From Candidatus Omnitrophota bacterium (GTDB taxonomy: Bacteria; Omnitrophota; Gorgyraeia; Zapsychrales; Fredricksoniimonadaceae), in NCBI GenBank assembly GCA_903944345.1, contig CAJARJ010000002.1:65969-129968 (forward strand): DNA of 64,000 nucleotides, written 5' to 3'. A program made the translations under genes and the position numbers. The notes below the pieces were generated by a model, which was not told the DNA's origin, searched no databases, and worked only from the letters and a program-made list of their open reading frames with translations. Position 1 is the stretch's first letter, and each line of letters starts with the position of its first letter. Below are positions 11,148 to 64,000 of this stretch, one piece after another.

Positions 11148-13055
11148 TTATTTTTCTTTATCGTCGTTGACCTTGAAGTCCGCGTCGATCACATCATCTT
11201 TCTTGCCGGAAGACCTCTCCTCGCCGGACGACTTGCCGTCGGACATGGTTTCCGCCTGCGCGCCGGAGTCTTCTGCTCCGGGCTGCTGGGCTGCGGAAGC
11301 CTTGTACATTTCCTCGGCGAGCTTATGGCTGACCTTGGTAAGTGCCTCCATGGACGATTTGATCCGGTCGGCAGCCTTGTCGGTCACCGCCTGTTTGAGC
11401 GACTCCAGTTCCTTGAGAATACTTTCCCGCTCGGACTGGGGGACTTTCTCGCCGTAATCCTTGAGGCCTTTCTCGGTGGAATACACCAGGGCATTGGCCT
11501 GGTTGACCAGCTCGGCGGATTCCTTGTTCTTTTTATCTTCCTCAGCGTACTTTTCAGCCTCCTTGACCATCTTCTGGATTTCTTCCTCGGAAAGCTTCTT
11601 CGGCGAAGTAATCCGGATAGACTGCTCCTTGCCGGTGGCCTTGTCCTTGGCATGTACATGCACAATACCATTAACGTCGATATCGAATGTCACCTCGATC
11701 TGAGGGACCCCGCGCGGAGCCGGAGGAATGCCAATCAGGTCAAAACGTCCTAACTCGACGTTATCATTGGCCATCTGCCGTTCGCCCTGCAGGACACGGA
11801 TCGTGACCGCCGGCTGATTGTCCTCGGCCGTCGAGAACACATTGCTCTTCTTGGTCGGGATCGTGGTGTTACGCTCGATCATCTTGGTCATGATTCCGCC
11901 CATGGTCTCGATCCCCAGAGTCAGGGGAGTGACATCGAGCAACAGCACGTCCTTGACATCGCCACGAATGATGCCCGCCTGAACGGCCGCACCCAAAGCC
12001 ACGCATTCCATCGGATCAATGCCGCGCTCGATCTTCTGCCCAACTTCTTTCTCGACGAAATTCTGCACAATCGGCATGCGGGTCGGACCGCCAACCATGA
12101 TAATCTTGTCAACCTTCACATCTTCACCCAGTTTCGAACTGGCATCCTTGACCGCCTGGCGAATCGGCCCGCGACAGCGATCAACAATCGGTCCAACCAG
12201 ACTCTCCAGTTTGGCACGATCCAATGTCAGCGTCAGGTGCTTGGGTCCAGTAGAATCCGCCGTGATAAACGGCAGGTTAATCTCGGTCTGTACCGTGCTG
12301 GAAAGCTCGACTTTGGCTTTTTCCGCGGCCTCGCGCAGGCGATGAAACGCCATCTTGTCCTGCGAGAGATCCATCCCGTTTTCTTTCTTGAACTCGCCGA
12401 CAATATACGCAATCAGGGCATTGTCCATGTCAGTTCCACCCAGAAGATTGTCACCACTTGTCGAAAGAACCTCGAAAGTTCCGTTCTCACCCATCTCCAG
12501 AATGGTTACGTCCAGCGTTCCTCCGCCCAGATCGAACACCATAATCTTCTGTTCCTTGCCAGCCTTATCAACACCATAAGCCAGACAAGCCGCTGTCGGC
12601 TCATTAATAATACGCATAACCTTGAGGCCAGCAATCTCACCAGCGTCCTTGGTAGCCTGACGCTGATTATCATTAAAATAAGCCGGAACAGTAATGACCG
12701 CCCCCTCCACCACATCACCCAGATATTTCTCGGAATCGGCCTTGATCTTCTGCAAAATAAAAGCTGAAATCTGCTGCGGCGTAAACTCCTTGCCCGTGAC
12801 GGCAAACTTGTGATCCGTCCCCATCTTGCGCTTGGCAGCGTAAATGGTGCCCTGTGAATTCATAGCCGCCTGCCGACGTGCCGGCTCACCCACCAGCCGC
12901 TCACCGTCCTTGGTGAACGCCACGAATGACGGAAACGCCTTGCCTGAGGAAACACCCGCACCCTCCGCCGAAGGAATAATTACCGGACGGCCGCCTTCCA
13001 TGACCGCTGCCGCGGAATTTGATGTCCCCAAATCGATTCCAATATACTTACCCAT
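11148..13055 (-). CDS. dnaK: molecular chaperone DnaK (Hsp70)
   Basis: [22 protein letters not shown] and other Hsp70 signatures; 635 aa. Confidence 0.97.
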
Positions 13056-49155: not shown

Positions 49156-50421
49156 CTAAGCCGGATTTTTCCCCGAAAAAAGATTTTTATTCCGCAAAAG
49201 ACGATGGTAAGACACAGCAAAGCGATGGGCCTCATCGCGCAAGCGCTGCAGCAGGCGCAGGGCCAGGGAGTCCCGGGACAAGATCAGCGCCGCGCGTTTT
49301 CCGGGAACAAAGATTTCCTCTTCCTTTTTAGCCAAACCGATTAGGGGAATATCCAAACCTAAAGCACGTAATTCTCCGGCGGCCGCCTGCAGCTGCCCCT
49401 TGCCGCCATCAATAACCACAAGATCAGGGTATGCCTTGCCTTCTTTCTTGAGCCGGCTGTAGCGGCGGCGAACAACCTCGGCAATCATTCTAAAATCATC
49501 TATGCCCTCAACTGTCCTGATCCGGAACCTGCGGTAATTTGACTTGTCGGGGGTACCATTCAGAAAAGAAACCATCGAGCCAACAGAAAATGACCCCATC
49601 GTATTTGATATATCAAAACATTCCAGCCGTTCAGGAGGACGCGCCAGTCCCAGTGCCCGCTGCAACTGCTCGGTCTCCTTGAAACAATTAATATCGGGAC
49701 TGGAAGAATATAACGCCCCTACCGCCCGCATCCGATCCCGAACCCGGGCGGCTTCCTCGAAATTTTTTGTACGCGCCAACTCTTCCATTTCCTGCCTGAG
49801 TTCCCGGTAGAGATCGTCTTTTTTCCCATCAAGAACATGTGCAATGTGCCGAATCGAACGAGCATATTCTGCCGCCGTCACCTGCCCGACACAAGGCGCC
49901 TGACAAAGACCGAGATCATGATAGAGACATGTGCTGCCAGACAAGGGCTCGCAGGAACGAAAAGGGAAAATTTTCCTGATCAAAGTCAGCGCCTCACGAA
50001 TCAGCGTCGCATCGGTATACGGCCCAAACAGCTTCCCGCCGGAGGCTTCCCCCGCAGCTCTGGAAGGAAGTCTCACGATGCTGACCAAAGGAAAGGGATC
50101 ATCAGAAATACGAATATACGGATAAGATTTCCCGTCTTTAAGTTCAACATTATATTTGGGCAGGTGCCGCTTGACCAAAGCCGCCTCAAGCACCAGGGCT
50201 TCGGCCTCGCTATGCGTTTGAATAAAATCAATATCTGAAATGTTCTCTACCAGAAGAGCGGTTCGCACATTGTCGATCCTGCCGCGAAAATAGGACTGCA
50301 CCCTGCGCCGCAGATTGACCGCCTTGCCGACATAGATCACGGTCCCTGCGCCATCTTTCATCAGATAAACACCGCTGGTCAAAGGTAATCCCGCAATCCG
50401 GGCGCGTAATTGATCAAGCAT
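49156..50421 (-). CDS. GIY-YIG UvrC-homolog nuclease lacking the C-terminal HhH region (Cho-like)
   Basis: GIY-YIG at the N-terminus (SGVYLMKDGAGTVIYVGKAVNLRRR), a UvrB-interacting-like segment and an endonuclease V-like domain. At 421 aa it is ~180 aa shorter than canonical UvrC. Confidence 0.7.
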   Translation of the reverse strand: MLDQLRARIAGLPLTSGVYLMKDGAGTVIYVGKAVNLRRRVQSYFRGRIDNVRTALLVENISDIDFIQTHSEAEALVLEAALVKRHLPKYNVELKDGKSYPYIRISDDPFPLVSIVRLPSRAAGEASGGKLFGPYTDATLIREALTLIRKIFPFRSCEPLSGSTCLYHDLGLCQAPCVGQVTAAEYARSIRHIAHVLDGKKDDLYRELRQEMEELARTKNFEEAARVRDRMRAVGALYSSSPDINCFKETEQLQRALGLARPPERLECFDISNTMGSFSVGSMVSFLNGTPDKSNYRRFRIRTVEGIDDFRMIAEVVRRRYSRLKKEGKAYPDLVVIDGGKGQLQAAAGELRALGLDIPLIGLAKKEEEIFVPGKRAALILSRDSLALRLLQRLRDEAHRFAVSYHRLLRNKNLFSGKNPA

Positions 50422-50439
50422 AGCTGCTCCCGAAAAATC

Positions 50440-52005
50440 CTAACGACGAAAAAGTTTCAGCATCTGTCCGGCTTGTTCAAAGCCCATCGCGCGCGCGCAA
50501 AGAAAATAGGCAACAACAAAAAGACATACCGAAAACACGAGCCCGGCGACCTCCGGCAAAGAAGAAAAGAACGCCATTCCCGCGCAAGCCACAACCGCCG
50601 CCACGGCGGAACACAACAACACCCGGACAAAAAACGCAGCCGACACCAAAACAGGAGTAAGCAATCTTGCACGCAGAAACTTCCTTAACAGAAAAACATT
50701 CACAACAGAAGAAAAGGCCGAAGCCAGAGCCAGTCCCGACAGCCCCAGAGGAAACATTAAAACGACATCCAGCACCGCATTAACCCCCAGACAGATCAGG
50801 GCCACAATAACCGGTGTCCGCGTATCCTGCAAAGCATGAAAAGCCGATGCCAGAATCCGGCTTGCACCGTATCCGGTCAATGCCAGACTATAAAACAATA
50901 AAGCCGATGCGGTCTGGTATGTCGAATGAGCGTCAAAAGCGCCGCGTTCGAACAACACCCTCACCACCGAAACCGCAAAACATACCAGAAAAATACTGGC
51001 CGGCAGCATGACAAAAACAATATTCCGCAGCGCAAAAACCAGCGTTTTGTCAAACTCTTCTTTACGCCCGGCCGCGGCATGCGCCGAAAGCGAAGGTAAA
51101 GACGCTGTAGACAAGGCCACCGCAAACAACCCCATCGGCAACTGAACCAAACGAGTAGCATAATAAATCGCCGCGATGCCTCCCAATCCAACTACTGATC
51201 CCAAAGAAGCACAGACGGTATCCACAAAAACATTCAGCTGATAAACAGCGGATCCGGCAATACGCGGCACAATCAAACGCCCCACCCGGGAAGCGCCCTC
51301 ATTAAACATCTGGCGGGGAGGCACAATCCAAAGACCGACACGGCGCAGTGCCGCCTGCTGAAACAGATACTGGACCAAGCCTCCGGCCAGCACCCCGAAA
51401 GCCATTCCGTAAACCGGATTATCCGAAAAAAACACTATCGAAACAAAAATAGAAAAGATCAGAACAACGTTCATCAGCGCCGGACCCAGAGCCGGAGCAA
51501 AAAATGCCCCATAAGTAAACTGCACCGCCGAAAGCAAAGCGGTCAATCCGATCAGAATCAGATAAGGAAACATGATCCTGGTCAGCATGACTGTCAGCTC
51601 GAACTTACCCGGCGTGTCCGCAAAGCCGGGGGCGATACAACGAATCAGCTGCGGAGCAAAAAGCATCCCCGCGGCGGTAATGCCCGAAAGAATCACCAAT
51701 GCCCAAAAGAAACAGGCCCCAAGAAATTCCCCAACCTCTCCGGACTGTTTGTGCTTGTACTGCATCATAACCGGAACAAACGCCGAATTGGCCGCCCCCT
51801 CACCCATAATATCCCGAAAAAGATTGGGCAGGCGAAAAGCCGTCACAAATGCATCCGCTCCCACGCCGGTTCCAAAGAAACGTGCAAAAAGGATGTCCCG
51901 CACAAAACCCAGTATCCGGCTTAACAATGTGCCGGAAGTCAGAACCGACGTGGAACGGGCAATGCTGCCGGCCGAAAAACTGGGTATCTCTTTAACAGTT
52001 GACAT
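50440..52005 (-). CDS. murJ: lipid II flippase MurJ
   Basis: 521 aa polytopic protein with the MurJ/MviN N-terminal signature (LSRILGFVRDILFARFFG...AFVTAFRLPNLFRDI). Confidence 0.9.
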   Translation of the reverse strand: MSTVKEIPSFSAGSIARSTSVLTSGTLLSRILGFVRDILFARFFGTGVGADAFVTAFRLPNLFRDIMGEGAANSAFVPVMMQYKHKQSGEVGEFLGACFFWALVILSGITAAGMLFAPQLIRCIAPGFADTPGKFELTVMLTRIMFPYLILIGLTALLSAVQFTYGAFFAPALGPALMNVVLIFSIFVSIVFFSDNPVYGMAFGVLAGGLVQYLFQQAALRRVGLWIVPPRQMFNEGASRVGRLIVPRIAGSAVYQLNVFVDTVCASLGSVVGLGGIAAIYYATRLVQLPMGLFAVALSTASLPSLSAHAAAGRKEEFDKTLVFALRNIVFVMLPASIFLVCFAVSVVRVLFERGAFDAHSTYQTASALLFYSLALTGYGASRILASAFHALQDTRTPVIVALICLGVNAVLDVVLMFPLGLSGLALASAFSSVVNVFLLRKFLRARLLTPVLVSAAFFVRVLLCSAVAAVVACAGMAFFSSLPEVAGLVFSVCLFVVAYFLCARAMGFEQAGQMLKLFRR

Positions 52006-52095
52006 ATAAAATAGGGTTTGTTATACTTTCGCCTTATCGTGCTATCGGGCCGTTCACAGTGAACGCCCCGCGTCCAATAACAAGGAGTTGCTCAA

Positions 52096-52359
52096 GTGCC
52101 TCAACGTAAATGTTCTGTCAAATCGCTCAAACAAAGCCAGAAGCGTCGTCTGCATAATCTTGATATCAAGACCGCGCTCAGAAAAACCGTCAAAGAATAC
52201 GTAGAAACCACCAAGACCGATCCCGCCAAAGCGGTTGGATTGCTTTCTTTGGCCTACAAAAAGATTGATAAAGCTGCCAAGCGTAATGTTCTGCACAAGA
52301 ACACGGCTTCTCGCCGTAAAGCTTCCCTTGCTAAGCTTTTAAAAGCGACCAAAGCTTGA
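52096..52359 (+). CDS. rpsT: 30S ribosomal protein S20
   Basis: 87 aa basic protein with S20 family features (KSLKQSQKRRLHN...KKIDKAAK). GTG start preceded by AAGGAG. Confidence 0.9.
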   Translation: MPQRKCSVKSLKQSQKRRLHNLDIKTALRKTVKEYVETTKTDPAKAVGLLSLAYKKIDKAAKRNVLHKNTASRRKASLAKLLKATKA

Positions 52360-52996
52360 CCACTGCAACTTCCAGCGCCTGTTCGCGTTGAACAAACCGG
52401 CTGTGCTTTAAAGCTTCGTCGGCCTCCTGCAAAATCAGGAGGCCTTTTTTATATTTGTCAGCGGAAACCCGGCCCTGAACACGATTACCCCAGTACCAGA
52501 CTACTCCACCCAAAAGCTGCTCTGCGGAATCGCCCCGGTCAAAAAGTTCCTTGAGAATCTTGAGGGCCGATACCGCACTTCTCCCCAGCAATTCATCCAT
52601 CATCTGAAAAATGGTTAAAAGCGGCTTCTCTGCGGCACTGATTACCTGCAGTTTTTTACGCAGAGACTTGCGGGGTTCTGCGCGCCCGTCCCAGGAAACG
52701 GCATCAAGCACCAAAACAGGATTCTCCGGCGTATCCTCAAGAAAGCGCATGACAAGCTCAAGATTTTCCTTGGAAAGTTTCTCGGCATTGCGTACCACCA
52801 CCAGCTTGCGCACCGACATGGCTGGAACCGAAGCCAGGGCAACCTTGAAGTCTTCCGCACTCAGCCCGAAAGCATCCAGCGTTTCCACGTCAAAACGGGC
52901 AGCGGTTTCATTCTCGAATAAGTTAGCCTTGAGCTGGGCAATCTTTTCCTGACGCCGCTCCAGTTCCAGTCCGATAAAAAGATAATGATTCGCCAT
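52331..52996 (-). CDS. holA: DNA polymerase III delta subunit-like (short, 221 aa)
   Basis: Delta-subunit-like N-terminal segment (MANHYLFIGLE...). Placed just downstream of lptE as in the conserved lptE-holA arrangement. About 120 aa shorter than E. coli HolA. Confidence 0.55.
   Translation of the reverse strand: MANHYLFIGLELERRQEKIAQLKANLFENETAARFDVETLDAFGLSAEDFKVALASVPAMSVRKLVVVRNAEKLSKENLELVMRFLEDTPENPVLVLDAVSWDGRAEPRKSLRKKLQVISAAEKPLLTIFQMMDELLGRSAVSALKILKELFDRGDSAEQLLGGVVWYWGNRVQGRVSADKYKKGLLILQEADEALKHSRFVQREQALEVAVVKLWSLLKA
52421..52452 (+). terminator. candidate rho-independent terminator of rpsT, embedded in the 3' coding region of the convergent holA-like gene
   Basis: 8-bp perfect stem ggcctcct / aggaggcc, 8-nt loop, then TTTTTT. 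Confidence 0.4.
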
Positions 52997-53098
52997 TCTT
53001 CTTCTCCCCCGAAAGCAATCAAGCCTTAAGCGGTCCGCTTAAGGCTTGTTCCGTCCGGTTTACAGATATATCGTGGCAATAACCAGGCAACACGCAGA

Positions 53099-53635
53099 TT
53101 ACCAGTCTTCAATCGTTCGCGCCACCACACGGCGGGCCACATCAACCAGAGCATCGGCAATGGCACTTTCCTCGGACTTGGCCAAAGCACCGGAAACATA
53201 ATACGTGGTGTCACCCGAAAAAGCCGGCTCCTGCCAGACCACCTTTTCATTGACCGGATCCCAGAGAGTCAATGCCAGAGTCACGGTCAAACGGTACTCC
53301 TTCACATCTTCATCATCGGTCAAGCGCAAATCTCCCCGTTCGAAGGAAAGCACCTGACCCTGCAAAACAAGATCAGCCCCCGCCTGGTCCGCGATTTTGA
53401 GATTGCCGTCAAAAATAAAGCGATCCACCACCGCATTGCGAATTTTGGTTTCCAGACCGGGAATATAAATCTTGCGCTGATCCTGGTTAAGGTAATCGAT
53501 ATTGTTGGCAAACGGCTGAACAAAGATAGTCTGATAACGGCTGGAAATAACCGAACCCGTTGTATAGGCACAACCGGGCAAAGAAAGAAGAAAACACCCA
53601 AGAAGCCCGGTCAACAGCGCGGGAAACGTTCTCAT
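53099..53635 (-). CDS. lptE: LPS-assembly lipoprotein LptE-like
   Basis: Lipobox LSLPGC, ~180 aa, positioned immediately upstream of holA. Confidence 0.6.
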   Translation of the reverse strand: MRTFPALLTGLLGCFLLSLPGCAYTTGSVISSRYQTIFVQPFANNIDYLNQDQRKIYIPGLETKIRNAVVDRFIFDGNLKIADQAGADLVLQGQVLSFERGDLRLTDDEDVKEYRLTVTLALTLWDPVNEKVVWQEPAFSGDTTYYVSGALAKSEESAIADALVDVARRVVARTIEDW

Positions 53636-54591
53636 TTAACCTCCGTCGGGATTTCAGCCAGCAAGGCTCTGGCCTGGTCGGCCCAGGTTGTCTGGCCATA
53701 TTTCTGCAGAATCTGCTGACAATAAATACGTGCGGACGCATACTTCTTGTTCTTCATGTAATACTTGGCAACAACATACGCATTCTCCGCTTCTTTCTCG
53801 CTCAAAAGACGAATTTGTTCCCTGGCCTCCGCCGTCAACTCGGAATCCGGATTGGTCTTCACAAAATCCTCAAACCCGGCAACTGCCGCACTGGTGACCT
53901 GCTGATCATACTGCGGGGCTACCGAGCGCTTGGCGTCGGACACCGCAATCTGATAACGCGCAGGCTCGGCCCATTCGGAATCGGGATAATCATCCAGGGT
54001 TTTCTCAAACTCTTCACGCGCCAGCTGATGCTCTCCTCTGGCCTGGAAATAAAGAGCAATCTTGTATTGCGCCGAAGCCGCAAACTGCCCGTAAGGATCA
54101 TTTTTGATAACCTTGCGAAAAATTTCCACAACACGATGCTCGGTGCCCAGCAGCGTTTCAGCCAGCTTTCCATCACGGGCTTTGCCTTCCATTAAAGCAA
54201 TCGCCAGTGCATACTGACGCTCAACGGCCTTGGGGCCCAGCTCGCTAAAAGGATACTTGTCCAGAACCAGTTGATAAGCCTCCACCGCCACCGCATATTT
54301 GCCCAGGATTTCATAAACACGGCCAATGTCAAACTGCGCGTCGGCCGCTTCACGGGCTTTGGAATAATGCTTGATCAATTTTTTGAATTCCCGTAACGCC
54401 TCCGCATTCTGTCCGGCATCCAGGAAACTGCGGGCATACGCCAGCTGCTCTTTGGGAGAGTCCTTAACAGCATATTTGGGATTCATCCAGGTACCGCTCT
54501 CAGGAGTCCATATCCAGAACGCCTGCGCCGGAAGAGCCGGGATCAGCAGAAAAAAAGAAAACAACACGCTAACCAGAAGACGATATGACAT
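53632..54591 (-). CDS. TPR-repeat lipoprotein, BamD-like
   Basis: Start set at the internal Met giving a signal peptide (MSYRLLVSVLFSFFLLIPALPAQA). Multiple TPR motifs throughout. Confidence 0.5.
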   Translation of the reverse strand: MSYRLLVSVLFSFFLLIPALPAQAFWIWTPESGTWMNPKYAVKDSPKEQLAYARSFLDAGQNAEALREFKKLIKHYSKAREAADAQFDIGRVYEILGKYAVAVEAYQLVLDKYPFSELGPKAVERQYALAIALMEGKARDGKLAETLLGTEHRVVEIFRKVIKNDPYGQFAASAQYKIALYFQARGEHQLAREEFEKTLDDYPDSEWAEPARYQIAVSDAKRSVAPQYDQQVTSAAVAGFEDFVKTNPDSELTAEAREQIRLLSEKEAENAYVVAKYYMKNKKYASARIYCQQILQKYGQTTWADQARALLAEIPTEVK

Positions 54592-54724
54592 AGGAATGGC
54601 CGGTAAAGGTTGTGTGCTGATATATTCGTGGGTCAATCTAACACAGCCAGCCTGGTTTGTCAACGCAGTGCGCGGGCAAAAAAACACCCCTCTTCGGTAA
54701 CGAAAAAGAAGGTAACGGCAGGAA

Positions 54725-56869
54725 TTATATTGATATCCCGGCAACCGGACGAATGGACAAAATGGTGGGCACAAAGCCGTCCACCTGCAGGCTTTCCAGA
54801 TCCTGTTGCGCCACCGGCAAAGGAACCCCCTTGCCGTCCCGGCGAATCTGCATGTCCCAGTTGGCAGAATTCAGATCAATACCACCAACGGCATCCTTGT
54901 TCTGCAAAGACGCAGCCTCGCTAACAGCCTGCCCCGCATCAATATTGGAGCGAGCCTGAACTGCAGTCAAAACCGCTCTGATATCCGAAGCGTCAAACCG
55001 AAACTCAGATAACTGCAAGCCGCGCCCGAACTGATCATCCGTAAGAACTCTATCTATATCCAAACCCGGGTCAAAATAAGCAACCCGATCATTGCTCTGG
55101 TCTGGCAACAATAGACCATGTCCAAGCAAGGCATCAAATATGTCCGGAGCCCTGTCCTTGAAGACCGCAACAAAATCCGCGGGGGTCACACGCACTTCAA
55201 AATCCGGTCTCTGCCTTTCAGCCCAGACGCGGGCCAAGGCTCTTAAAACATAGTTGACAACATTAACCTCATTGGCCGGATTCACCCGCGAACTCTGCTG
55301 CATCAAGATTGTCAGCAGACGCCTGATCGATGGCAGTTGCTTGACTTCATTCCAAAGACGCTCCAGCTGATTGATATCCTTAACATCGTCTGGATTCATC
55401 CTCACTTGCTTTGCCGAAAAGTCAAATGCCGGCAGCAACCGTCGCCACTCTTTGGTCATGATGGAAACGGACACATTAAAAGCCTCTATGTCTATAGGAC
55501 TTCTCTCGCCATCGGCTTGCGCGCTGCCTTCTTGCAATATCTGCTCTATCTCGGGAACATCTACCTCGTCTCGCCCCAGAATATCCGAAGCATCCAACCC
55601 AAGACTTTCCAACAATAGCGGCAAAACATACGACACCGGAGCCCCGTTCTGAGCGGCATCGGCGATATCGCCCATTCTCTTTGGTTCCAGAAGTGCTGCA
55701 GCAGAATCAAAAGCCGCGTCTTCCAGTTGCCGCGCGGCATCACGGGCCGCCAACGGCAAAGCGGCATAATCAGAAACAATTTGTAATTGGGCTGGATCCT
55801 GTCCGCGCGCCAACCCGCCGGAAAAATATTTACGGGGGATAAGTTCCTGCGAATACTGATCCACATCCTCCCGGATCATGTTAAAAACCCCCTTGCGAAA
55901 AGCCTCCATATATTGTTCCCAAATCATGCGATTGGCCGAACATTCTGCGCCCTTGCCGGAACAGTCAGACTGGTCAATCCCTGCCACCCGGGACTGATCG
56001 GCATAGACCCGCCCCAGAATAGATTCCTTGAGCGCCCGCTTGTACCAGGTGGCCAGAACCATAGCTGTACAAATCTGGCGCAGAACAGTAAAACTTTTTC
56101 CCTGGTTAACCTCGCGCTCTATTTCCGGAACAATAACATCCCGTAAAACTTCGGACGACAAACGGACAAACTCCTCGTCATCACCCACCGGACTGTTGAG
56201 CACGGGCGCGGCCTGTCCAGCCTGGCTCTTGTAGGCCAGATAATCTCTTTCGGTCATAACCCGCAGGCGCTGGGTCAGAAGATAGGCTGTTGTTCCTTTT
56301 TCGTAGACAACAGCCGTGTCCGGAATAATCCAGACCTTGTTAAAACTTTCCAGCGGCACATCCGCAGAACCAAATTTCTCATGCGCCCGGCGATAGAACT
56401 CACTCCAGTACTTTTTCCCCAGCTCGGTATCGGGATGCGTCAAGGAGGCCGCCAACTGTTTAAGCAGATAGTCCTGAGCCAGAAGGTCTCGCCCCATAGC
56501 TGTCAAACCAAACTGATCATCAACCAGCCGATCCCCCTCATAGGGCGAAAGGTTAACCCACTGATCGGTATCAGGAATAGTCAACGCCGTCAGGAAATAT
56601 TTGACCAACCGGGTATATTCTTCCTGTTTCTGATCCGGCGTCAGGGCTGCGTCTCCCTTACGAATAAGAAAATCAAATTTCAGGGCATTCATCGGATCAA
56701 TGGTTACGCCCTGCAAATAGGCCGGAGTGAAAGCCTCCGATGGGGGCAGCAGTGTTCCGGGTTCAGGCATAAGCTGCATAACAGATTGTGCCTGCGCCAG
56801 ACCGGTCGGCGGACGCACACAGCTCCAGCCAAATATAACCAATAAAAATATCGCAGTGACTCTTTTCAT
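54725..56869 (-). CDS. secreted protein (714 aa), minimal member 4 of the giant-protein paralog family (N-domain plus C-terminal tail, short middle)
   Basis: Signal peptide ...GLAQAQS and the conserved N-domain (WVNLSPYEGDR, GRDLLAQDYLLKQL, NKVWIIP, PRKYFSGG). C-terminal GGIDLNSANW...DGFVPTILSIRPVAG tail. Confidence 0.85.
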   Translation of the reverse strand: MKRVTAIFLLVIFGWSCVRPPTGLAQAQSVMQLMPEPGTLLPPSEAFTPAYLQGVTIDPMNALKFDFLIRKGDAALTPDQKQEEYTRLVKYFLTALTIPDTDQWVNLSPYEGDRLVDDQFGLTAMGRDLLAQDYLLKQLAASLTHPDTELGKKYWSEFYRRAHEKFGSADVPLESFNKVWIIPDTAVVYEKGTTAYLLTQRLRVMTERDYLAYKSQAGQAAPVLNSPVGDDEEFVRLSSEVLRDVIVPEIEREVNQGKSFTVLRQICTAMVLATWYKRALKESILGRVYADQSRVAGIDQSDCSGKGAECSANRMIWEQYMEAFRKGVFNMIREDVDQYSQELIPRKYFSGGLARGQDPAQLQIVSDYAALPLAARDAARQLEDAAFDSAAALLEPKRMGDIADAAQNGAPVSYVLPLLLESLGLDASDILGRDEVDVPEIEQILQEGSAQADGERSPIDIEAFNVSVSIMTKEWRRLLPAFDFSAKQVRMNPDDVKDINQLERLWNEVKQLPSIRRLLTILMQQSSRVNPANEVNVVNYVLRALARVWAERQRPDFEVRVTPADFVAVFKDRAPDIFDALLGHGLLLPDQSNDRVAYFDPGLDIDRVLTDDQFGRGLQLSEFRFDASDIRAVLTAVQARSNIDAGQAVSEAASLQNKDAVGGIDLNSANWDMQIRRDGKGVPLPVAQQDLESLQVDGFVPTILSIRPVAGISI

Positions 56870-56958
56870 AACAACTCCCGGGATAATTGAAAAAACCTTA
56901 TCACACCACTAATAAGTATGGAACATTACCCGCCAAAAGGCAACCCGGCCGGCAAAAG

Positions 56959-57717
56959 CTAATTTGTTGACACGTATCTGTTTCTGACAAAACAAAGCCC
57001 CGCCACAAAAAGAATGTAATACCCGCACACAATGCCGGTGGAAACCTGCGGCAGCGCCCAGACGCCACCCGGGACCAGACTGAAAAACCAGGCAGCGGCT
57101 ACCAGAAGATTGAGCGCAATATGCAGACTCCCCGCCACGAGCTCTCCCAGCGGAGAAAAAAGACTTCCTGTCATAACCACTCCCACTCCCAGCGCAGTAA
57201 CCAGCGTGGCCAAAGGCACCACCGGCAAATTGGCCAGCAGTCCAACAGGGGTCAAGTTCCCGAAAACATACGCAGTAATCCCGGCCGATCCGGCCCAGGC
57301 CGCCAGGGAAACAATCAGGCCTTCTCTGAGCCAGCGCAGTAAAGATGAACCGCCTTCTGTCCCTACCCACGGCAGAAGAAACATTGGAGAAACAAGAACA
57401 ATAGAAAGGACACAAATAAAAGAGAGCTGAAATCCAACATCAAAAAGCTGACGCGGATCTGCCAATGCCATAGCCAGCAATGCAAACCCGACCGTATTGA
57501 GCATGTCCTGATCGCGCTCGATCACAAAAGCCAGCAAAAAAACCGTACTCATCCACGCAGCGCGTACCACCGGCGGTTCTCCTCCAACCATAAATGCGTA
57601 AAACCAGGCCAGCAGCAAAGACAAAACAAAACTTGCCCGGCGGCCAACCCTGAGCGCACCCAGAAGCATGACAAATATCGAAACCAGCAGCGTAATATTG
57701 AGCCCACTGATGGCCAC
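56959..57717 (-). CDS. ComEC/Rec2 competence-domain membrane protein; probably the 3' remnant of a comEC gene split by the adjacent integrated element
   Basis: Polytopic Competence-domain-like sequence. The upstream end coincides with the GC drop and the recombinase 3' end, and the recombinase frame reads ~60 aa into this gene. Confidence 0.5.
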   Translation of the reverse strand: MAISGLNITLLVSIFVMLLGALRVGRRASFVLSLLLAWFYAFMVGGEPPVVRAAWMSTVFLLAFVIERDQDMLNTVGFALLAMALADPRQLFDVGFQLSFICVLSIVLVSPMFLLPWVGTEGGSSLLRWLREGLIVSLAAWAGSAGITAYVFGNLTPVGLLANLPVVPLATLVTALGVGVVMTGSLFSPLGELVAGSLHIALNLLVAAAWFFSLVPGGVWALPQVSTGIVCGYYILFVAGLCFVRNRYVSTN

Positions 57718-59312
57718 AATATGGGTCTTGGCAGGTCAATGCAGGGGAAAGAATCCTTGCTTTGGATGGATGCAACTGCTGGAAGGAAACAGTCAATGTC
57801 GATTTTACCGTCGATATTGACCTTTATTGAAGTATTCAGAAGCTGAAGCACAGCTTTTTTCTGCTGATATGTAAACTGCTTCATTCCCTCTTTGATTTTC
57901 TTGACATAATCAATCGCATTCTTTATCTCTTCTCTCTTATCTTCCTTATTCAATGACAATGTCAAGTCCTGCTTTGTTCTCTCAAGCGTCTCCCGATTCT
58001 TTCTTAATGAATCCATCTGCTCTCTTAACTGCTCAATTGTAATAATAGACTGCCTGTACGCTTCAAGAATCCTATGCTCTTCTTTATCCAAGCTGTCGAG
58101 AAGCATCGAAATCCTTGAAAGCTCTTTTTCAGCAGCTTCCCTGCCAAGTTTCTCGACATCCGGTTTGTTCCTAACAGCATGCTCAATCAAATCCGGGTTC
58201 TGAAATATCTTTACAACTTCGTTCCAGACTGAATCTTCAAGCTTTCTTGCCTGAACATATCTGAGCTTGCACTTCACAACCTTATCAAACCTGTTTTTTA
58301 CAAAGTGCGTGCACCGATAATACAGCATAAAATACGGGCCATACTTCTTGCCTTTCTTTACCGTCACCTGCTTATCTGCTGTCCCCGCAACAGTATTTCC
58401 GCAATCCCCGCATTTCACCATGCCTTGAAGAAGATAATCGTATTTTGCGTTTCGCTCTGAATAATTCCTCCTGTTTAAAAGAAGTTCCTGTGCGCGATAA
58501 AACTCTTCGTCAGAAACAATCCTCGGAACATCAACCAGAATCCAGTCCTTTGAGGGCTTAAGCCCTCCTGTCTTTGAGTCATGCTTATTCGCGTGCCATT
58601 TCCCAATATAGATTGAATCACGGAGAATGTCATGAACCGCATCCTCTCTCATCTCATGACCTTCTTTTGTCCTATAGCCAAGCTCTCTTAATTTTCTTGT
58701 GACCTTAAGGATTGAGAAATCAGGCTGGTTATAAAACTCAAAAGCTAACCTAACAACCTCTGCTTCTTTCTCATCAACAGTAATTTTCTTTGTCGCCTTA
58801 TCATATGAATACCCAAATCTTGCATTAGCAGAACCTGAATAATACCCTTCCTTCGCTCTCCTTAATTTCCCAAGCTTTGACCGTTCCATAAAAGTATTCC
58901 GCTCAAGTTCAGCAATCGAACCGAACAGCGATAGAACGAAATTTCCAAGATAAGTCGAGGTATCAAATGGCTCAGTGATTGAACGGATGCTGACGCTTGA
59001 TTTCTTTAGCTCATCGACTGTGTTTAGAAGATGCTTGTTGTTTCTGAAGAATCGGTCAACTCTGTAGACAAGGACAAGCTGAAACCTTCCTTCTCTTGAA
59101 TCTTCCATCAGTCTTTGAAACTGTGGTCTTTCAAAGCTCGTGCCTGAATAGCCGTCATCAATGTATTCGCCAAATACATCATACTTATTGTCTGCCGCAT
59201 GTTTTCTTAATAGCTCCATCTGGGAGGCAAGCGAGAAATTCGAAGTCTGCTCCTCTGTAGAGACACGGGCGTATAAAGCAACTTTTGTGATTTCCTTGTT
59301 CTCAGTCATCAC
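57549..59312 (-). CDS. large serine recombinase (integrase); annotated 3' end runs into host comEC sequence
   Basis: N-terminal resolvase catalytic domain (VALYARVSTEEQ...S..QMELL), recombinase domain, zinc ribbon (CGDCGN...C) and C-terminal coiled coil. The last ~60 codons are GC-rich host sequence. Confidence 0.85.
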   Translation of the reverse strand: MMTENKEITKVALYARVSTEEQTSNFSLASQMELLRKHAADNKYDVFGEYIDDGYSGTSFERPQFQRLMEDSREGRFQLVLVYRVDRFFRNNKHLLNTVDELKKSSVSIRSITEPFDTSTYLGNFVLSLFGSIAELERNTFMERSKLGKLRRAKEGYYSGSANARFGYSYDKATKKITVDEKEAEVVRLAFEFYNQPDFSILKVTRKLRELGYRTKEGHEMREDAVHDILRDSIYIGKWHANKHDSKTGGLKPSKDWILVDVPRIVSDEEFYRAQELLLNRRNYSERNAKYDYLLQGMVKCGDCGNTVAGTADKQVTVKKGKKYGPYFMLYYRCTHFVKNRFDKVVKCKLRYVQARKLEDSVWNEVVKIFQNPDLIEHAVRNKPDVEKLGREAAEKELSRISMLLDSLDKEEHRILEAYRQSIITIEQLREQMDSLRKNRETLERTKQDLTLSLNKEDKREEIKNAIDYVKKIKEGMKQFTYQQKKAVLQLLNTSIKVNIDGKIDIDCFLPAVASIQSKDSFPCIDLPRPILWPSVGSILRCWFRYLSCFWVRSGLAAGQVLFCLCCWPGFTHLWLEENRRWYALRG

Positions 59313-59524
59313 TGCCTGCCTGTTAGTTTTTTAAGCTTCTTTAAGTCTTCTTCTGTCCAATACCGATAATTATTCATCGGGTCACGCTTTGCTTTAGGCA
59401 CTTTTCCGGCATTCTCCCAGTTGTAATACGTCCACCGGGTTATGCAAAGCTCGCGCTCAATGTCTTCAATATAGTATCGTTCTTCCATACCGTATACTTT
59501 ACTATAGTTTGTAATAGTAGTCAA
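59309..59524 (-). CDS. small MerR/excisionase-family HTH protein (candidate recombination directionality factor)
   Basis: 71 aa; a central helix-turn-helix is plausible (ELCITRWTYYNWENAGKVPKAKRD); overlaps the recombinase start by 4 nt. Confidence 0.45.
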   Translation of the reverse strand: MTTITNYSKVYGMEERYYIEDIERELCITRWTYYNWENAGKVPKAKRDPMNNYRYWTEEDLKKLKKLTGRQ

Positions 59525-59532
59525 TCCATAGA

Positions 59533-59862
59533 TTACCCCCTGCCTTCATTCTTCTCTGATAACTCAATTGCATACAGAACAACCTTCACTATATCCTTTA
59601 GTAATGCCGGATTGTCCGACGTATGAACTTTCAAATTAGGTCTTAGAATCTGTTTTCTAGTCGGAAGAATAGCGATGACCTCCTTTAATATTTCTTCCCT
59701 GTCCTTGTCAGAAAAATATTTTGAGTCAGCCCATTCATCAAACAGCGACAGCAAGTCTCTATCCGGGAATTTACTTTCGTAATCCCGGAACTTTTCTGCC
59801 TGTTCTCTGATAAAGGCTTTGGATGCCATATTGGCAGTCTCCATAATCAAAACTTCGTCCAC
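59533..59862 (-). CDS. hypothetical protein (element cargo)
   Basis: 109-aa ORF in the AT-rich element, tightly packed with its neighbours; no recognisable motif. Confidence 0.4.
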   Translation of the reverse strand: MDEVLIMETANMASKAFIREQAEKFRDYESKFPDRDLLSLFDEWADSKYFSDKDREEILKEVIAILPTRKQILRPNLKVHTSDNPALLKDIVKVVLYAIELSEKNEGRG

Positions 59863-60488
59863 AGGTTCTTGTATTTTCTAAGCGAAAGAATGTAATTCTT
59901 GATGACGTTCTTCCCATTCCTTATTAGCTCGACTCTTGAAATGTATTCAAAGGAATGAGGAGCATATTTCCTTAACGCTTCGGTAAAATCAGCGAAAACT
60001 TCCTCACACTGTTCATAGTTGCGCTCGTTCCAACACTCGTTCATCACGTTATCAACGTAGTTGTTCAGCATTTCCCTTTTCCATGCTTCAGAGATTGCAG
60101 AAAGAACACTGCCAAGCCCGCCCTCAGTGCCGGATGTTGCACGAAACAAAGCCTCGTCAAAATCCAAAATCTGCTTTAAAAGCCGTTTTGCTTCTCCAAG
60201 GGCAAAATTATTGCCGGGGTCAAAACCATGAAACATTCTCATGTAGTAAAACCGCATGAAGTCAGCAAGAACGCTCTCAAACTCTTCGCTGGAATAGACG
60301 ACTGAACTTTTTAGCTGATACGCGCCCCGGACAGTGTCATGTGGCACTTCGATTTCTCTTACCAATCGTGCGGGGTGAAGCCTCTCAAGCATTCGTGCAA
60401 ATCTTCCGGGCATAAATTCCTCCTTGTTAAATCTGGTCAAAAATTTTCTTTTGCGGTTGAACTTTCTCAGCCTTCTTTTCGACGCCAT
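59847..60488 (-). CDS. hypothetical protein with highly basic N-terminus (element cargo)
   Basis: 213 aa; starts KRRLRKFNRKRKFLTRF then an acidic/aromatic globular region; no known motif. Confidence 0.4.
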   Translation of the reverse strand: MASKRRLRKFNRKRKFLTRFNKEEFMPGRFARMLERLHPARLVREIEVPHDTVRGAYQLKSSVVYSSEEFESVLADFMRFYYMRMFHGFDPGNNFALGEAKRLLKQILDFDEALFRATSGTEGGLGSVLSAISEAWKREMLNNYVDNVMNECWNERNYEQCEEVFADFTEALRKYAPHSFEYISRVELIRNGKNVIKNYILSLRKYKNLWTKF

Positions 60489-62733
60489 GTTTCATGTAAT
60501 ACTTTTCAAAGCACATTGCCTTAATTTGCTCAGACAAGTCTTCTCTGTCAGAGCCAGGCCTTGGAGTGTTGATTTTCACAACCTCGTTATCACGGCAGAC
60601 AAATGCTGTGAACGGTTTTAGTTTCGTAAACTCTTCCGGCGGGATTCTTGTCGATTTTGAGATTTCCTCCGCATCTTCCCGGCGGAGCTTGAAATAAATC
60701 TGAGTGCCTGCAATCGCAAGAACATCCCTTGTCTTGCCCTCGACCTGACTCAAATATTGATGCGCAAAAATTACAGAAAGTTGATACTTAGATAATGCCG
60801 ATACCTGAATATCTAAGTCACCCGGCCCCATATAAAATTCGTCTTTTATCAGGGTGAACGGTTTTCTCTCGTGGAATGGAATGTTCGCTCGCTGAATTAT
60901 GAGATTGTTTACAAACGAATCGAACAAGCCCGCGAGAAGCGATGCTCTTTGTTTTCCGATTGAGCCGCAGGAAAGATTGACGAGACAAAGCTTGCCATTC
61001 TCCATTATGTCCTTAAGAGAAATCTTGTTTTTATCGTCTTCAAGTGTAAAGAATCTTAGACTGCCCTCATCGAGCAAGAGATGACTAAGCCTGCTTAAAA
61101 CAGGAGCCATCGAGTCATAATTTGAATACTGGATTTCATCGAGAAAATTAATGACAATCGGATGGGTTATTTTTGATTTAATTTTTTCACGGATTACTTT
61201 TCCCTTTGCGCTTTTTGAAAGAAGAAGTCTTAAATCAGCGAAATTGATTTCCGGAACGCTCGCATAAATATAAAACACGCACGAAAAGCCGAACGCCATC
61301 TTTGGCCCAAACCAAGCCTGACTATTCTTTGTGCTGGTGATTGTTTCCATGCTTGCGCTCATGTCATCACTGAACTTTCCAGCTCCGACAAGAGAAGCAT
61401 TAAGATTTTCTCTAATGGTCAACAACGGGGTCAGACCTTTTATCCCAAAATCAATGAAAACAACCTTACTAATTAAATGAACAGGGATGCGCGACATAAT
61501 GCCCGAATTCAAATCACCTTGAAAATCAACGACCATGACTGACTCGCCATTCTCAACTTTCTTAATAGCCAAATCAGCCAGTAAGACTGACTTTCCTGCA
61601 CGGGGCGCACCCATGATATGGATGTGCGGATTGAATCGCTGGACTGGTGAAAAGACACCAACCCCCTGCCCGCAAGCCCATGTCCCAAGTAGCACGTCAG
61701 ACTTTTCTGCTGTCTTCTTTGGATAATCTCCGGCAGGAACTCTTAAAAAAATATCATCAAACTCCTTATCTCCCATGATACCGACAGGCATATGAAGAAT
61801 GCCAGCAAGCTCATGCGAATTGACAAGAAAGCCAGAATGAAATGACACGCGGTCATTTGCCATCTGCAATATTGCTTCCGGGGTGAAATCTTTTCTAATC
61901 AGGAAAGCTTTATCGTCGTAAACGTAATTCGCTATGAAGGCATTAATAGATGCTTCGCATGTTATGTCAGGGAGTAGAAGGCGAAAACTGCACGAGTAAT
62001 ACGACCTGAATTCCGGGCTTTTGTATTCAAGCTTTTTGTTTACCGACCCTGCCTGTTCGCTGGGACTTGTCACGCGGTCAATCCCGTGAATTGCCTTCCA
62101 TTCAGTATCAACGCATTCTGAAACTATGGCATGTACTGCTCCTGAAAGTCCCATGATTAGAACCTGGTAGATTCCCTTCTTATCCTCAGGAATTTGAAGG
62201 AACATCTGAGCAAGAAGATTAAGAGGACTTACGATAAAACCGCGATATGAGCTCATGTTTTTATAGAACGGGGCTGAAATATCAGGGACAAAGTCATAGA
62301 CGACAAGACTCCCTTCATTCTTTTCCGGTTCAACAATCTCCGTATGAACATGTGAAAAGAAAGTCTTTACTGCTGCATCAACAATCCGGATATCCGACTC
62401 CTCACCATAAAAACTGATAAGGATTTCTTTGCAGTTGCCCCTAATTTCAAAGACAATTTGCGAAGCTGTATTGTGTAGACTTTCAGCAAATTGTTCCGAG
62501 AGCAGGAAGAAATTCTCAACATCTGCTTTCGCAGGATAGACATTCAGCGTCTTTGGATTCTTGTATGAGAATTCAGTTACAGGAGAAAGAAGCCTCGGCG
62601 TCAGATTAACTGGCTTATCTGAAACCTCGTGCGTGCAGGCATTCATGTTATTGTTCTGAAGCTCACACAAAGACATCTTCTTCAGCGATTCTTCGACGAA
62701 GTATTTAAGAAAATGCGAACAAGGAACTGACAT
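60427..62733 (-). CDS. P-loop NTPase of the FtsK/TraD(VirD4)/HerA-DUF87 type with a ~370-aa unique N-terminal region
   Basis: Walker A IMGAPRAGKS near residue 385 and Walker B-like TLIKDEFY near residue 640. No N-terminal TM segments. Confidence 0.65.
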   Translation of the reverse strand: MSVPCSHFLKYFVEESLKKMSLCELQNNNMNACTHEVSDKPVNLTPRLLSPVTEFSYKNPKTLNVYPAKADVENFFLLSEQFAESLHNTASQIVFEIRGNCKEILISFYGEESDIRIVDAAVKTFFSHVHTEIVEPEKNEGSLVVYDFVPDISAPFYKNMSSYRGFIVSPLNLLAQMFLQIPEDKKGIYQVLIMGLSGAVHAIVSECVDTEWKAIHGIDRVTSPSEQAGSVNKKLEYKSPEFRSYYSCSFRLLLPDITCEASINAFIANYVYDDKAFLIRKDFTPEAILQMANDRVSFHSGFLVNSHELAGILHMPVGIMGDKEFDDIFLRVPAGDYPKKTAEKSDVLLGTWACGQGVGVFSPVQRFNPHIHIMGAPRAGKSVLLADLAIKKVENGESVMVVDFQGDLNSGIMSRIPVHLISKVVFIDFGIKGLTPLLTIRENLNASLVGAGKFSDDMSASMETITSTKNSQAWFGPKMAFGFSCVFYIYASVPEINFADLRLLLSKSAKGKVIREKIKSKITHPIVINFLDEIQYSNYDSMAPVLSRLSHLLLDEGSLRFFTLEDDKNKISLKDIMENGKLCLVNLSCGSIGKQRASLLAGLFDSFVNNLIIQRANIPFHERKPFTLIKDEFYMGPGDLDIQVSALSKYQLSVIFAHQYLSQVEGKTRDVLAIAGTQIYFKLRREDAEEISKSTRIPPEEFTKLKPFTAFVCRDNEVVKINTPRPGSDREDLSEQIKAMCFEKYYMKHGVEKKAEKVQPQKKIFDQI

Positions 62734-62742
62734 AACCTTCTC

Positions 62743-63516
62743 CTATATGATTGCTTTCCCCGTTTCACCCGCACCCGGCACAGACCAGATGTTTGCCTTT
62801 ATTCCCGATTGAATCAGTTGCGGCATGGTGGTTATCCAGATGAACCCATCCCTGTCTACCGACGATATAATTCTGGATATGGATTTAAGCCTAGCTGTGT
62901 TGTTTGCAATGAAGAGAACTCTAAAACGGGTAAAGTTACAGCTGAACCATTCTTCATATTCTTTCGTCTCGTTCTCCTGAAACATCGAGACGTATTTGAG
63001 AAATTTTTTCTCAATATCCTCGTTATAGGAAGGGGCGGGCGAAGATATAATTTCCGTTCCTGAACAAATTTCCAGAAGGAATAATGCATGCTTGTTGTTC
63101 CGCTTTAGAACAAAAACGCCGTCCGGAATTATCTTGAGTTGATATCTCTCTCTCAAAATATGTTCCGGCATCACCTCGCATTCAACATCACCGCCTTTAA
63201 ACTGGCTATAGATATCGACGAGAGTCTTAATGTTTTCCTGCTGGTGCCCAAGCTTTAAGGATATGCGGGGCTTTGAGTACCGGACGCCAAAAGACTTGGC
63301 GCAATCTTCAGTGAGGTAAAATAGATGCGCCGACTTCCCCACGTTGACACTCGGCAACATGACAAAAGACAATAGACCGCCGCTGACAAGCTTTCTCATA
63401 CGACGCTGAACTGCCTTGATGTGCATACCAAACAACTCAGATATATGCCCGGAAGAAAGGCAATGAAACCTCGCTATGAAACTTAATATTTGTTTGTCCC
63501 GTTCCTGTAGCCTCAT
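62743..63516 (-). CDS. replication-relaxation (Replic_Relax) family wHTH protein
   Basis: N-terminal LQERDKQILSFIARFHCLSSGHISELFG...AVQRRMRKLVSGGLL matches the Replic_Relax wHTH pattern; 257 aa. Confidence 0.6.
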   Translation of the reverse strand: MRLQERDKQILSFIARFHCLSSGHISELFGMHIKAVQRRMRKLVSGGLLSFVMLPSVNVGKSAHLFYLTEDCAKSFGVRYSKPRISLKLGHQQENIKTLVDIYSQFKGGDVECEVMPEHILRERYQLKIIPDGVFVLKRNNKHALFLLEICSGTEIISSPAPSYNEDIEKKFLKYVSMFQENETKEYEEWFSCNFTRFRVLFIANNTARLKSISRIISSVDRDGFIWITTMPQLIQSGIKANIWSVPGAGETGKAII

Positions 63517-63530
63517 TGCCCTTCCTTTCC

Positions 63531-63779
63531 TTAGAATTGTTCTTCGTCCAACGACAGTTTGAATGGCTCAAAAACAAAAACTCCACCAATCCCGCCACAA
63601 CACATGCATTTAATTGCAGTAGGTTTCTGCACCCACTGCTCCCCGCCAAAAATGTCAGCCTTTATTTCTACCCCCATATGCACCTGCCATCCGGAACCAT
63701 TGCAAATCGAACATCTTTTCCACTTATGCATAAACGCCTCCTTAGAAAACGATTCGTTCTTTTCCTGTGTCACAATCAA
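63531..63779 (-). CDS. small CxxCxGxG zinc-finger protein (paralog A)
   Basis: 82 aa with CSICNGSGW and CMCCGGIGG, a DnaJ-type CxxCxGxG pair. Confidence 0.4.
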   Translation of the reverse strand: MIVTQEKNESFSKEAFMHKWKRCSICNGSGWQVHMGVEIKADIFGGEQWVQKPTAIKCMCCGGIGGVFVFEPFKLSLDEEQF

Positions 63780-63999
63780 CTTTCACAATCTGCCATCCCC
63801 TGCCATGACAAACACTGCATGGACGAACATGAGGCGTTCCACAAAATTCATTCGATGAATATGACCTTCTTGATACTCCGCTTACTTCAAAGCCCTTGCC
63901 GTTACAGCAATAACAGTCACGTTTCTCGTCGTATTCGAACATAAATTGCCTCCATTTTCTTGAATCGGTTAATTTGATTTTTTCCCTCTTACGCATCAA
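63742..63999 (-). CDS. small CxxCxGxG zinc-finger protein (paralog B)
   Basis: 85 aa with CYCCNGKGF and CSVCHGRGW. Overlaps paralog A by 38 nt in a different frame; start lies at the window edge. Confidence 0.35.
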   Translation of the reverse strand: MMRKREKIKLTDSRKWRQFMFEYDEKRDCYCCNGKGFEVSGVSRRSYSSNEFCGTPHVRPCSVCHGRGWQIVKVDCDTGKERIVF

Positions 64000-64000
64000 C

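Follow-up and report, generated by a model that had tools for sequence, protein, structure and literature searches.

Large serine recombinases (LSRs) drive several elements that split a host gene when they integrate and rebuild it precisely when they leave, such as A118 and phi10403S in comK of Listeria, or SPbeta (SprA) in spsM and skin (SpoIVCA) in sigK of B. subtilis. Experiments on A118, SPbeta and skin established that excision is regulated by development or by infection. The competence gene comEC was also found to be a target of such enzymes: in Streptococcus pyogenes and S. pneumoniae, the serine-recombinase elements Tn1207.1, Phi1207.3 (Tn1207.3) and Phi10394.4 are inserted in comEC/celB at a GA dinucleotide and disrupt the competence gene (PMC4260502). 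We report here a stretch of 64,000 nucleotides from a Candidatus Omnitrophota bacterium (contig CAJARJ010000002.1; this whole stretch is hereafter called the window), in which a genomic island with its own LSR gene adjoins the 3' half of comEC. The arrangement is very probably the result of conservative site-specific integration driven by the LSR at the CA of a ComEC histidine codon. The right junction, the family-wide use of this site and the logic of the attachment (att) sites in relatives are established by the data presented below. The features at the junction are the following, ORF standing for open reading frame.

56959..57721, minus strand: 3' half of comEC (B' side of attR), with a Competence match; the alignment to intact ComEC begins at THIVAISG
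57717, minus strand: GTG start of the listed comEC ORF (252 aa); ComEC homology runs from the His codon at 57723-57721
57722..57723, minus strand: predicted crossover dinucleotide 5'-CA-3' (C = 57723, A = 57722), which opens the invariant His codon
57724..57753, minus strand: element-side arm of attR (P arm), TTCTTTCCCCTGCATTGACCTGCCAAGACC
57549..59312, minus strand: LSR ORF, 587 aa from GTG 59312, or 586 aa from ATG 59309
57724-59312, minus strand: native part of the LSR gene
57549-57721, minus strand, stop codon included: LSR tail, the last 57 codons, which are out-of-frame comEC

The 252-aa ORF is no more than the C-terminal half of a ComEC of the short form (~470-520 aa). Indeed, its match to the Pfam Competence domain (PF03772, E 1.4e-44) runs from profile position 26 to 266 (of 270), so that the beginning of the domain is lacking, and the match to TIGR00361 (ComEC_Rec2) begins at model position 161 only. 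With a 520-aa ComEC as tblastn query, the window covers residues ~243/256-496. The nearest full-length relatives, several of which carry the source name Candidatus Omnitrophica, are short-form ComECs of 515-521 aa that comprise DUF4131 and Competence without a metallo-beta-lactamase domain. The window aligns with them only from residue ~250 on, and the alignment opens within the motif GTxH(I/L)xAxSG, where the window reads ..AK-THIVAISGLN. Upstream in the comEC frame, six extra codons (PAKTHI) are followed by a stop. No DUF4131 was detected in the window, the state expected of a split gene.

The 587-aa ORF is, judged from its sequence, an intact LSR. It matches the Pfam families Resolvase (PF00239, 1.2e-37, residues 11-157), Recombinase (PF07508, 1.9e-16) and Zn_ribbon_recom (PF13408, 5.4e-11), the last two above their cut-offs, bears the motif YARVSTEEQ, and departs from none of the columns that are invariant in 32 family members (Y13, R15 and S17 among them). 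Its matches in the PDB comprise the SPbeta integrase (17-498) and the C-terminal domain of the A118 integrase (142-462), in alignments that span the coiled-coil region. A preliminary description of this DNA had the recombinase gene reading across the junction for about 60 host codons, which is borne out by the last 57 codons being comEC in the other frame. It also placed the start of the comEC ORF at a fall in G+C content from 58%; the place agrees with a step at 57721/57724, but the figure corresponds only to a local peak of 0.59 (57050-57349), the host average being ~52%. G+C amounts to 0.528 on the host side (1-57721; 0.516 in 50001-57721) and to 0.425 on the element side (57724-64000). The coarse profile stays at ~50-56% from 1 to ~57,700 and then at 41-43% up to 64,000, and the 300-nt profile drops from 0.51 to 0.42-0.38 between 57500 and 57950.

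The target is shared by the LSR family. Relatives form ~65 clusters at 45-73% identity, with Omnitrophota or Omnitrophica as source names but for two (Elusimicrobia and Diapherotrites). A scan of GTDB species genomes with the LSR family alignment gave ten Omnitrophota loci at ≥50% identity (50-71%), on which ComEC was then placed by tblastn. At seven of these loci (L022, L023, L025, L027, L028, L030, L031), the C-terminal half of comEC (residues ~250-end) comes directly after the LSR on the same strand. At L026, it is the N-terminal half (residues ~6-260) that abuts the LSR, on the opposite strand, L029 is a contig that ends at the LSR, and L024 has no comEC and represents the attP form. LSR loci at 25-45% identity exhibited no such adjacency, the sole other ComEC match being full-length and ~6 kb off in L090.

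The junctions of these loci align with one another: a conserved element arm (..TTTYCCCTGCATTGACCYGCCAAGACC) gives way to CAT, after which (I/L)-x-A-x-S-G is encoded. At the protein level, 18 of the 65 LSR tails read ..I-S/F-W-x-S-A-G.., which is the frame-shifted H-I-L-A-x-S-G, and another 25 stop within a few codons of RP(I/M/T). The opposite side of the break is also found in sequence collections: a profile of the ComEC N-terminal half, compared with 1.84 billion cluster representatives, gave 16,331 matches, and ~12 of the best 150 consist of the N-terminal half only and end just after GTxH. Their tails are short, related to each other and encoded by the P' arm of the element (HILPRLYTKMPSVAL, HILAGQHTKMPPASL, HVLPA(Q)).

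The crossover was mapped on related elements. L024 and L025 have nearly identical LSR ends, which are identical up to ..GCCAAGACCCAT before L025 enters comEC and L024 a different sequence, the two diverging after ..AAGACCCAT. In the window, element DNA starts from 57724 and comEC-derived DNA from 57721. The last 16 nt of the P arm (TTGACCTGCCAAGACC) are identical in L023, and the arm is conserved across the seven loci with a C-terminal comEC half. Two contigs obtained independently of each other, L024 and the Logan contig L095, which encodes the 742-aa protein P0184, show the attP arrangement, in which the LSR is followed by element DNA and not by comEC; they are colinear on both sides of attP. 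The two attP arms of L095 mirror each other around the CA, 18 of 27 positions agreeing as an inverted repeat (TTTTATCCCATTTTGACCCGCCAAGACC-CA-TATCCTGGCGGGGCAATACAGGAAAA); this contig has no terminal overlap, and what is seen is thus the attP form and not a closed circle. Two attL sites keep comEC exactly up to the CA: in L094, a comEA-like gene precedes an N-terminal half ending in ..RTGTAH/VLPA(stop), and in L176 the end reads ..KSGTIH/ILAGQHTKMPPASL(stop).

Both junctions occur in a single metagenome-assembled genome (MAG), GCA_028713875.1 (isolate STA_64), with attL on contig 14 (L176) and attR on contig 15 (L023). The gene order is leuS, comEA, comEC N-terminal half, a ribbon-helix-helix (RHH) gene and the element in L176, and Replic_Relax, orf71 (a small gene upstream of the LSR, described below), LSR, comEC C-terminal half and bamD in L023. 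Joining B of L176 to B' of L023 (..MVKSGTIHILVVSGFNVGIVAF.. / ..MVKSGTIHILVVSGFNVGIV..) yields a perfect ComEC motif and a ComEC of 468 aa; joining P of L023 to P' of L176 yields a sequence close to the attP actually present in L095, from which it differs at 5 of the 57 nt covering both arms. The attL, attR, attP and attB sites are mutually consistent, since the halves from L176 and L023 rebuild both ComEC and an L095-like attP.

In serine integrases, the central dinucleotide sets the polarity of recombination. The exceptional orientation of L026 (PCVY01000016.1, Omnitrophica CG11, ~11480-12300) is as predicted by this rule, its 57%-identical LSR being associated with the core TG, the reverse complement of CA, and with a reversed comEC. 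A similar tail (AH/SFPTQCTK) was observed in P0278, so that this flipped sub-family is not a one-off. For the organism of the window, the predicted attB is the N-terminal half of comEC followed by CA and TATTGTGGCCATCAGTGGG, and the predicted attP is ..CCTGCCAAGACC followed by CA and a non-comEC arm.

We propose that the LSR of the element recombines its attP with an attB internal to comEC on the Candidatus Omnitrophota chromosome, the crossover taking place at the CA of the invariant His codon within GTxH(I/L)xAxSG. The window would then carry attR, composed of the P arm, the CA and the C-terminal half of comEC, and the N-terminal half (~245-255 codons, with DUF4131) would be expected at the far end of the element. 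As the OB-fold/DUF4131 half would be parted from the channel half, ComEC-dependent DNA uptake would be lost as long as the element is integrated, and excision would precisely restore comEC. Having no stop before the crossover, the integrated LSR would end in its 57 junk comEC codons. In the excised form, its frame would continue into the RHH ORF at the other end of the element to give a protein of 730-742 aa, as is the case in relatives. The RHH protein and the orf71 product may both play roles in recombination.

The recombinase gene itself may be altered by these events. No member of the LSR family has a stop codon before the crossover, which is always reached in the same phase (..CCA AGA CCC / ATN, that is P-R-P-I/M/T). 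On attP contigs, the LSR frame runs without a stop into an ORF with two RHH motifs (RHH_1 29.8 bits and RHH_3 29.5 bits, both over their cut-offs), for a total length of 730 aa in L024 and 742 aa in P0184. At attL, the crossover is where the RHH ORF begins, its phase being unchanged; an ATG overlaps the core in L094 and L024 (C ATG TC.), and L176 and L095 have no ATG there, the first codon of the RHH ORF being ATA. The tails of the N-half-only ComECs turn out to be encoded by the conserved first part of this ORF (..KCLQLHF..), read in the other frame. Because the LSR frame is open across attP into the RHH ORF, integration appears to split a composite LSR-RHH gene. This in-frame architecture was seen in four relatives at the DNA level (L024, L095, L094, L176); the element of the window displays only an open-ended LSR in the same phase (..P-R-P / I..). 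It is a tentative and rather unlikely proposal that attP lies inside a composite integrase gene and that the state of recombination rewrites the recombinase, the circular form encoding a 730-742-aa LSR-RHH fusion from which the RHH part is cut off upon integration. If true, the LSR would be left with a junk tail, and the RHH ORF would come to lie behind the N-terminal half of comEC, hence behind the comEA-comEC promoter. Such a natural counterpart of engineered fusions between an integrase and a recombination directionality factor (RDF) could set directionality and couple excision to the expression of the competence operon.

The strongest competing explanation, to which we give somewhat less than an even chance, accepts the insertion as real and takes it for a dead end: the element would be decayed or immobilised and comEC permanently inactive, as anti-competence sabotage or gene loss and not as a reversible switch. 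Competence genes such as comM, comK, comYC and comEC are often disrupted by mobile elements, and the insertion was present in all five contigs of the species, no intact allele being found. An IS21-family element stands at the far side of the island, which contains in addition two extra tyrosine recombinases, and attL was not recovered.

Several of our results on the left junction, together with the way in which the sites were mapped, weigh against the proposed integration and count in part for the dead end. The preliminary description placed the N-terminal half of comEC beyond the element, outside the window, and advised extending the sequence past 64000. The element was followed for at least 27.8 kb past that point up to the IS21, on the ENA contig k141_428928 and via exactly matched proteins, and neither the other att site nor the N-terminal half was reached. 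Its other statement, that a serine-recombinase element sits inside comEC, agrees with the recurrent site and with the presence of both halves in one MAG, and the comparison that it recommended with uninterrupted comEC genes of relatives gave intact proteins of 515-521 aa, and in many Omnitrophota genomes a related LSR occupies precisely this position in comEC. The attL of this organism is thus missing from the 34 kb of element recovered, k141_428928 starting at the IS21 inside the element. Only one contig, L020, passes through the IS21; on its other side lie unrelated genes of the minus strand (adh_short, PNPOx, BrnT/BrnA and DsbD-like), with no comEC among them. Neither an inverted P arm, nor a GTxH-plus-tail motif, nor a P' arm like that of L024, nor an RHH homologue was detected in the recovered 34 kb; since the inverted P arm and the RHH gene are lacking there, the element may be rearranged or immobilised. 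A scan of metagenome contigs with the 333-aa protein of the far end gave only two fragments with 55% identity, and a combined query of this protein and the ComEC N-terminal half gave only full-length ComECs, with no far-end protein and no N-half fragment of the species. The protein collection contains neither an intact comEC nor an alternative LSR C-terminus of this species, hence no sign of excision here, and no attB or attP of the species was present in the collections. Moreover, the two junctions of the MAG lie on separate contigs of a binned genome, and the crossover position was deduced from related elements and not from attB and attP of one strain.

Other observations speak against a dead end. 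The LSR keeps every family-invariant residue, the C-terminal half of comEC is an uninterrupted ORF with all 19 invariant columns, and the orf71-LSR module is intact. In addition, relatives exist in the attP form, and the LSR family therefore appears active. Site-specific integration by the LSR remains our preferred explanation for how the element came to lie in comEC.

The other explanations are contradicted by the data. It is very improbable that the 252-aa ORF represents a whole Competence-domain gene that stands by itself next to an unrelated island, the outcome that the preliminary description had held incompatible with an insertion. A GTG start is present, and databases contain short ComEC-like proteins of 229-267 aa, one of which (P0004) begins at the same motif. 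However, the Pfam match opens at profile position 26, all full-length relatives (515-521 aa) carry DUF4131 upstream of Competence, the same break point recurs beside related LSRs, and the halves rejoin perfectly in one MAG. P0004 (267 aa, starting with VHILAISG) was examined as a stand-alone gene and rejected, as an in-frame TGA lies 16 codons upstream: its DNA (L007, L006) is a continuous 520-aa comEC with one in-frame TGA, after which the gene caller restarted at the next GTG.

Regarding this TGA in its own right, an Omnitrophota lineage (L007, 2157-2159; L006, 107-109; L008) carries it within comEC (GE*RDVPP) at a position where relatives have Arg. The identical 267-aa product occurs in three separate JGI metagenomes, the TGA itself being read in L007 and L006, and it is either a persisting nonsense allele or a recoded or read-through codon. 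Another protein, P0003, is one of the two closest ComEC C-terminal halves (~50% identical; ENA ERZ1426844, 2,176 bp) and is preceded by a cut gene of 392 aa with a 16-nt overlap. This layout resembles the LSR-comEC arrangement of the window and is probably another occupied site.

Equally improbable is a chance landing of the element in comEC through an LSR of low specificity, transposase-like as in TnpX or TndX elements. Target choice is indeed relaxed in some LSRs, but the codon position is identical in eight of the ten related loci despite strongly diverged comEC genes, and many N-half fragments end at the same residue; family-wide conservation of the site contradicts a chance event.

Finally, 11,258 nt of the window spanning the junction recur at 100% identity in the ENA contig k141_428928 (260,609 bp), and the 586-aa LSR with the same comEC-derived tail was found on five contigs from NCBI, JGI and ENA (P0001 was located on a JGI contig of 123,934 bp), so that the junction is not an assembly artefact. 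An assembly chimera joining a 52% G+C genome to a 42% G+C element, an idea that metagenome assemblies and contigs breaking inside the element might invite, is the least credible explanation and is contradicted by this repetition in independent assemblies (L001, 100% identical across the junction, and five contigs from three sources) and by homologous junctions in eight other genomes.

Beyond the LSR, the window contains the following parts of the element.

57724..64000: right-hand 6.3 kb of the element, 42.5% G+C, continuing at least 27.8 kb past the window end
59309..59524, minus strand: orf71, a small helix-turn-helix (HTH) protein gene whose stop overlaps the LSR start (CAGTGATGA)
59533..60488, minus strand: orf109 and orf213, element genes without family match
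60427..62733, minus strand: 768-aa P-loop ATPase, weakly similar to TraD/HerA/CedD DNA translocases (coupling-protein-like)
62743..63516, minus strand: Replication-relaxation family protein of 257 aa (Pfam Replic_Relax, 35.2 bits, cut-off 25.3)

In eight of the ten genome loci, a counterpart of orf71 with 50-73% identity immediately precedes the LSR. The orf71 product matches weakly phrog_66, 'excisionase and transcriptional regulator' (E 5.8e-4), and MerR_1/HTH_3 (E ~0.01-0.03). Translationally coupled to the LSR, orf71 is the leading candidate for the role of directionality factor or regulator. The orf109 product has a 54% identical counterpart in L022. The 768-aa ATPase matches phrog_5156 (1.9e-18) and, under its cut-off, TIGR03743 SXT_TraD (E 2.4e-4), and has distant homologues in L024 and L025. 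The Replic_Relax protein matches phrog_9381, 'replication initiation by nicking'.

The first 34.2 kb of k141_428928 are all of ~40% G+C, and the element is a genomic island of at least 34 kb. Outward from the LSR, the 71-aa HTH protein, the two ORFs without family match, the ATPase and Replic_Relax are followed by an M48-like protein, two tyrosine recombinases, ArdA and an outer-membrane beta-barrel protein, then by a DUF87 ATPase, RadC, Abi_C and a BsuBI/PstI-type restriction-modification pair, and lastly by an SMC-like ATPase, a nuclease/phosphatase and a lipase-like protein. The defence and anti-defence cargo (L001 1-9500, L011 10500-20483, L015 1-10000) includes an N6-methyltransferase with a BsuBI/PstI-type endonuclease, Abi_C, ArdA and RadC, as well as an 820-aa SMC/AAA ATPase adjoining an MPN635_N protein. 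The two tyrosine recombinases (231 and 352/422 aa) suggest nested elements, and variant contigs of the island part from L001 at 7789 and 9150. The IS21-family element at the far side (L020 5491-8234, the start of k141_428928) encodes IstA (510 aa), IstB (225 aa) and a basic 175-aa ORF, and adjoins the lipase-like gene. Its ends are the exact points at which three assemblies break, so that it is probably present in several copies, and it may have rearranged the left part of the island.

Neither phage structural genes, among the labels, nor type IV secretion system genes, among the Pfam labels, were found in the recovered 34 kb. In IMG/VR viral contigs, a scan with the single LSR gave nothing and one with the family alignment gave only LSRs of at most 36% identity; this absence of the clade fits a non-phage element. 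Taken by its gene content, the element looks like a mobilisable genomic island with defence genes.

On the other side of the junction, the genes downstream on the minus strand, namely a 714-aa gene, bamD, lptE, holA, murJ and uvrC, are ordinary chromosome. Relatives have comEC, the 714-aa gene and bamD in the same order, which indicates that the C-terminal half of comEC is in its native place. The 714-aa protein (54725-56869, minus strand) has no Pfam, NCBIfam or PHROG match and occurs beside comEC in L027 with 28% identity over 376 aa. In this minus-strand run (49156-57721), the comEC half is co-directional with all the genes just named, so that LSR read-through across the junction could possibly enter partly essential genes and the insertion could have polar effects. 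No tRNA genes were found in the window, and a stretch of high A/T skew at 50.4-52.0 kb is merely murJ.

The family described here is thus a serine integrase clade of the little-studied Omnitrophota that has specialised in a codon among the most conserved of the ComEC DNA-uptake channel. Of the cluster representatives that best match the ComEC N-terminal half, ~8% are interrupted at the His codon, and mobile-element sabotage, or control, of competence appears to be common outside Firmicutes. The family offers natural and well-defined sets of attB, attP, attL and attR, including a variant with flipped core and reversed orientation. Moreover, the integrase would gain or lose a DNA-binding module with each recombination and, if this module affects directionality, this would represent a new mode of regulation for serine integrases, enzymes in wide use for genome engineering.

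Like Tn1207.1 and Phi1207.3, the element of the window is inserted site-specifically within the coding sequence of comEC. Unlike it, the streptococcal elements have a Firmicutes host and a GA core in place of CA, and consist of a prophage and a defective transposon with mef(A)/msr(D) and two or three recombinase genes; an integrase ORF across attP was not reported for them. Among phage collections, the LSRs closest to that of the window come from Leuconostoc, Lactobacillus and Streptococcus phages at 28-30% identity, none exceeding 30%. Similarly to the SPbeta and A118 systems, with whose integrases the window LSR aligns, an LSR element splits a host gene; it differs from A118, SPbeta and skin in the target gene, the phylum and the type of element, which is not a phage.

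An attP inside an integrase gene, so that integration alters or splits the integrase, was reportedly described by Magrini et al. in 1999 for the Myxococcus phage Mx8 (IntP/IntX) and by She et al. for SSV1-type elements. Unlike these tyrosine recombinases, the enzyme is here an LSR, and the part removed is a C-terminal tandem RHH module. An LSR with a small accessory protein at its C-terminus in one polypeptide was engineered as the phiC31 Int-gp3 serine integrase-RDF fusion (PMC5737554), and an engineered SPbeta integrase-YotN fusion (PDB 9dxd) was among the structure matches. Such Int-RDF fusions are artificial and drive attL x attR recombination, whereas the LSR-RHH fusion of the relatives is natural and exists only in the attP state. 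We found no paper in the full-text literature linking Omnitrophota or LSRs with comEC. Insertion of serine-recombinase elements into comEC is already known in streptococci; new here are the phylum of the host, a single invariant ComEC codon that the whole clade uses as its target, a naturally flipped core that goes with the reversed orientation, and an attP inside the LSR-RHH reading frame.

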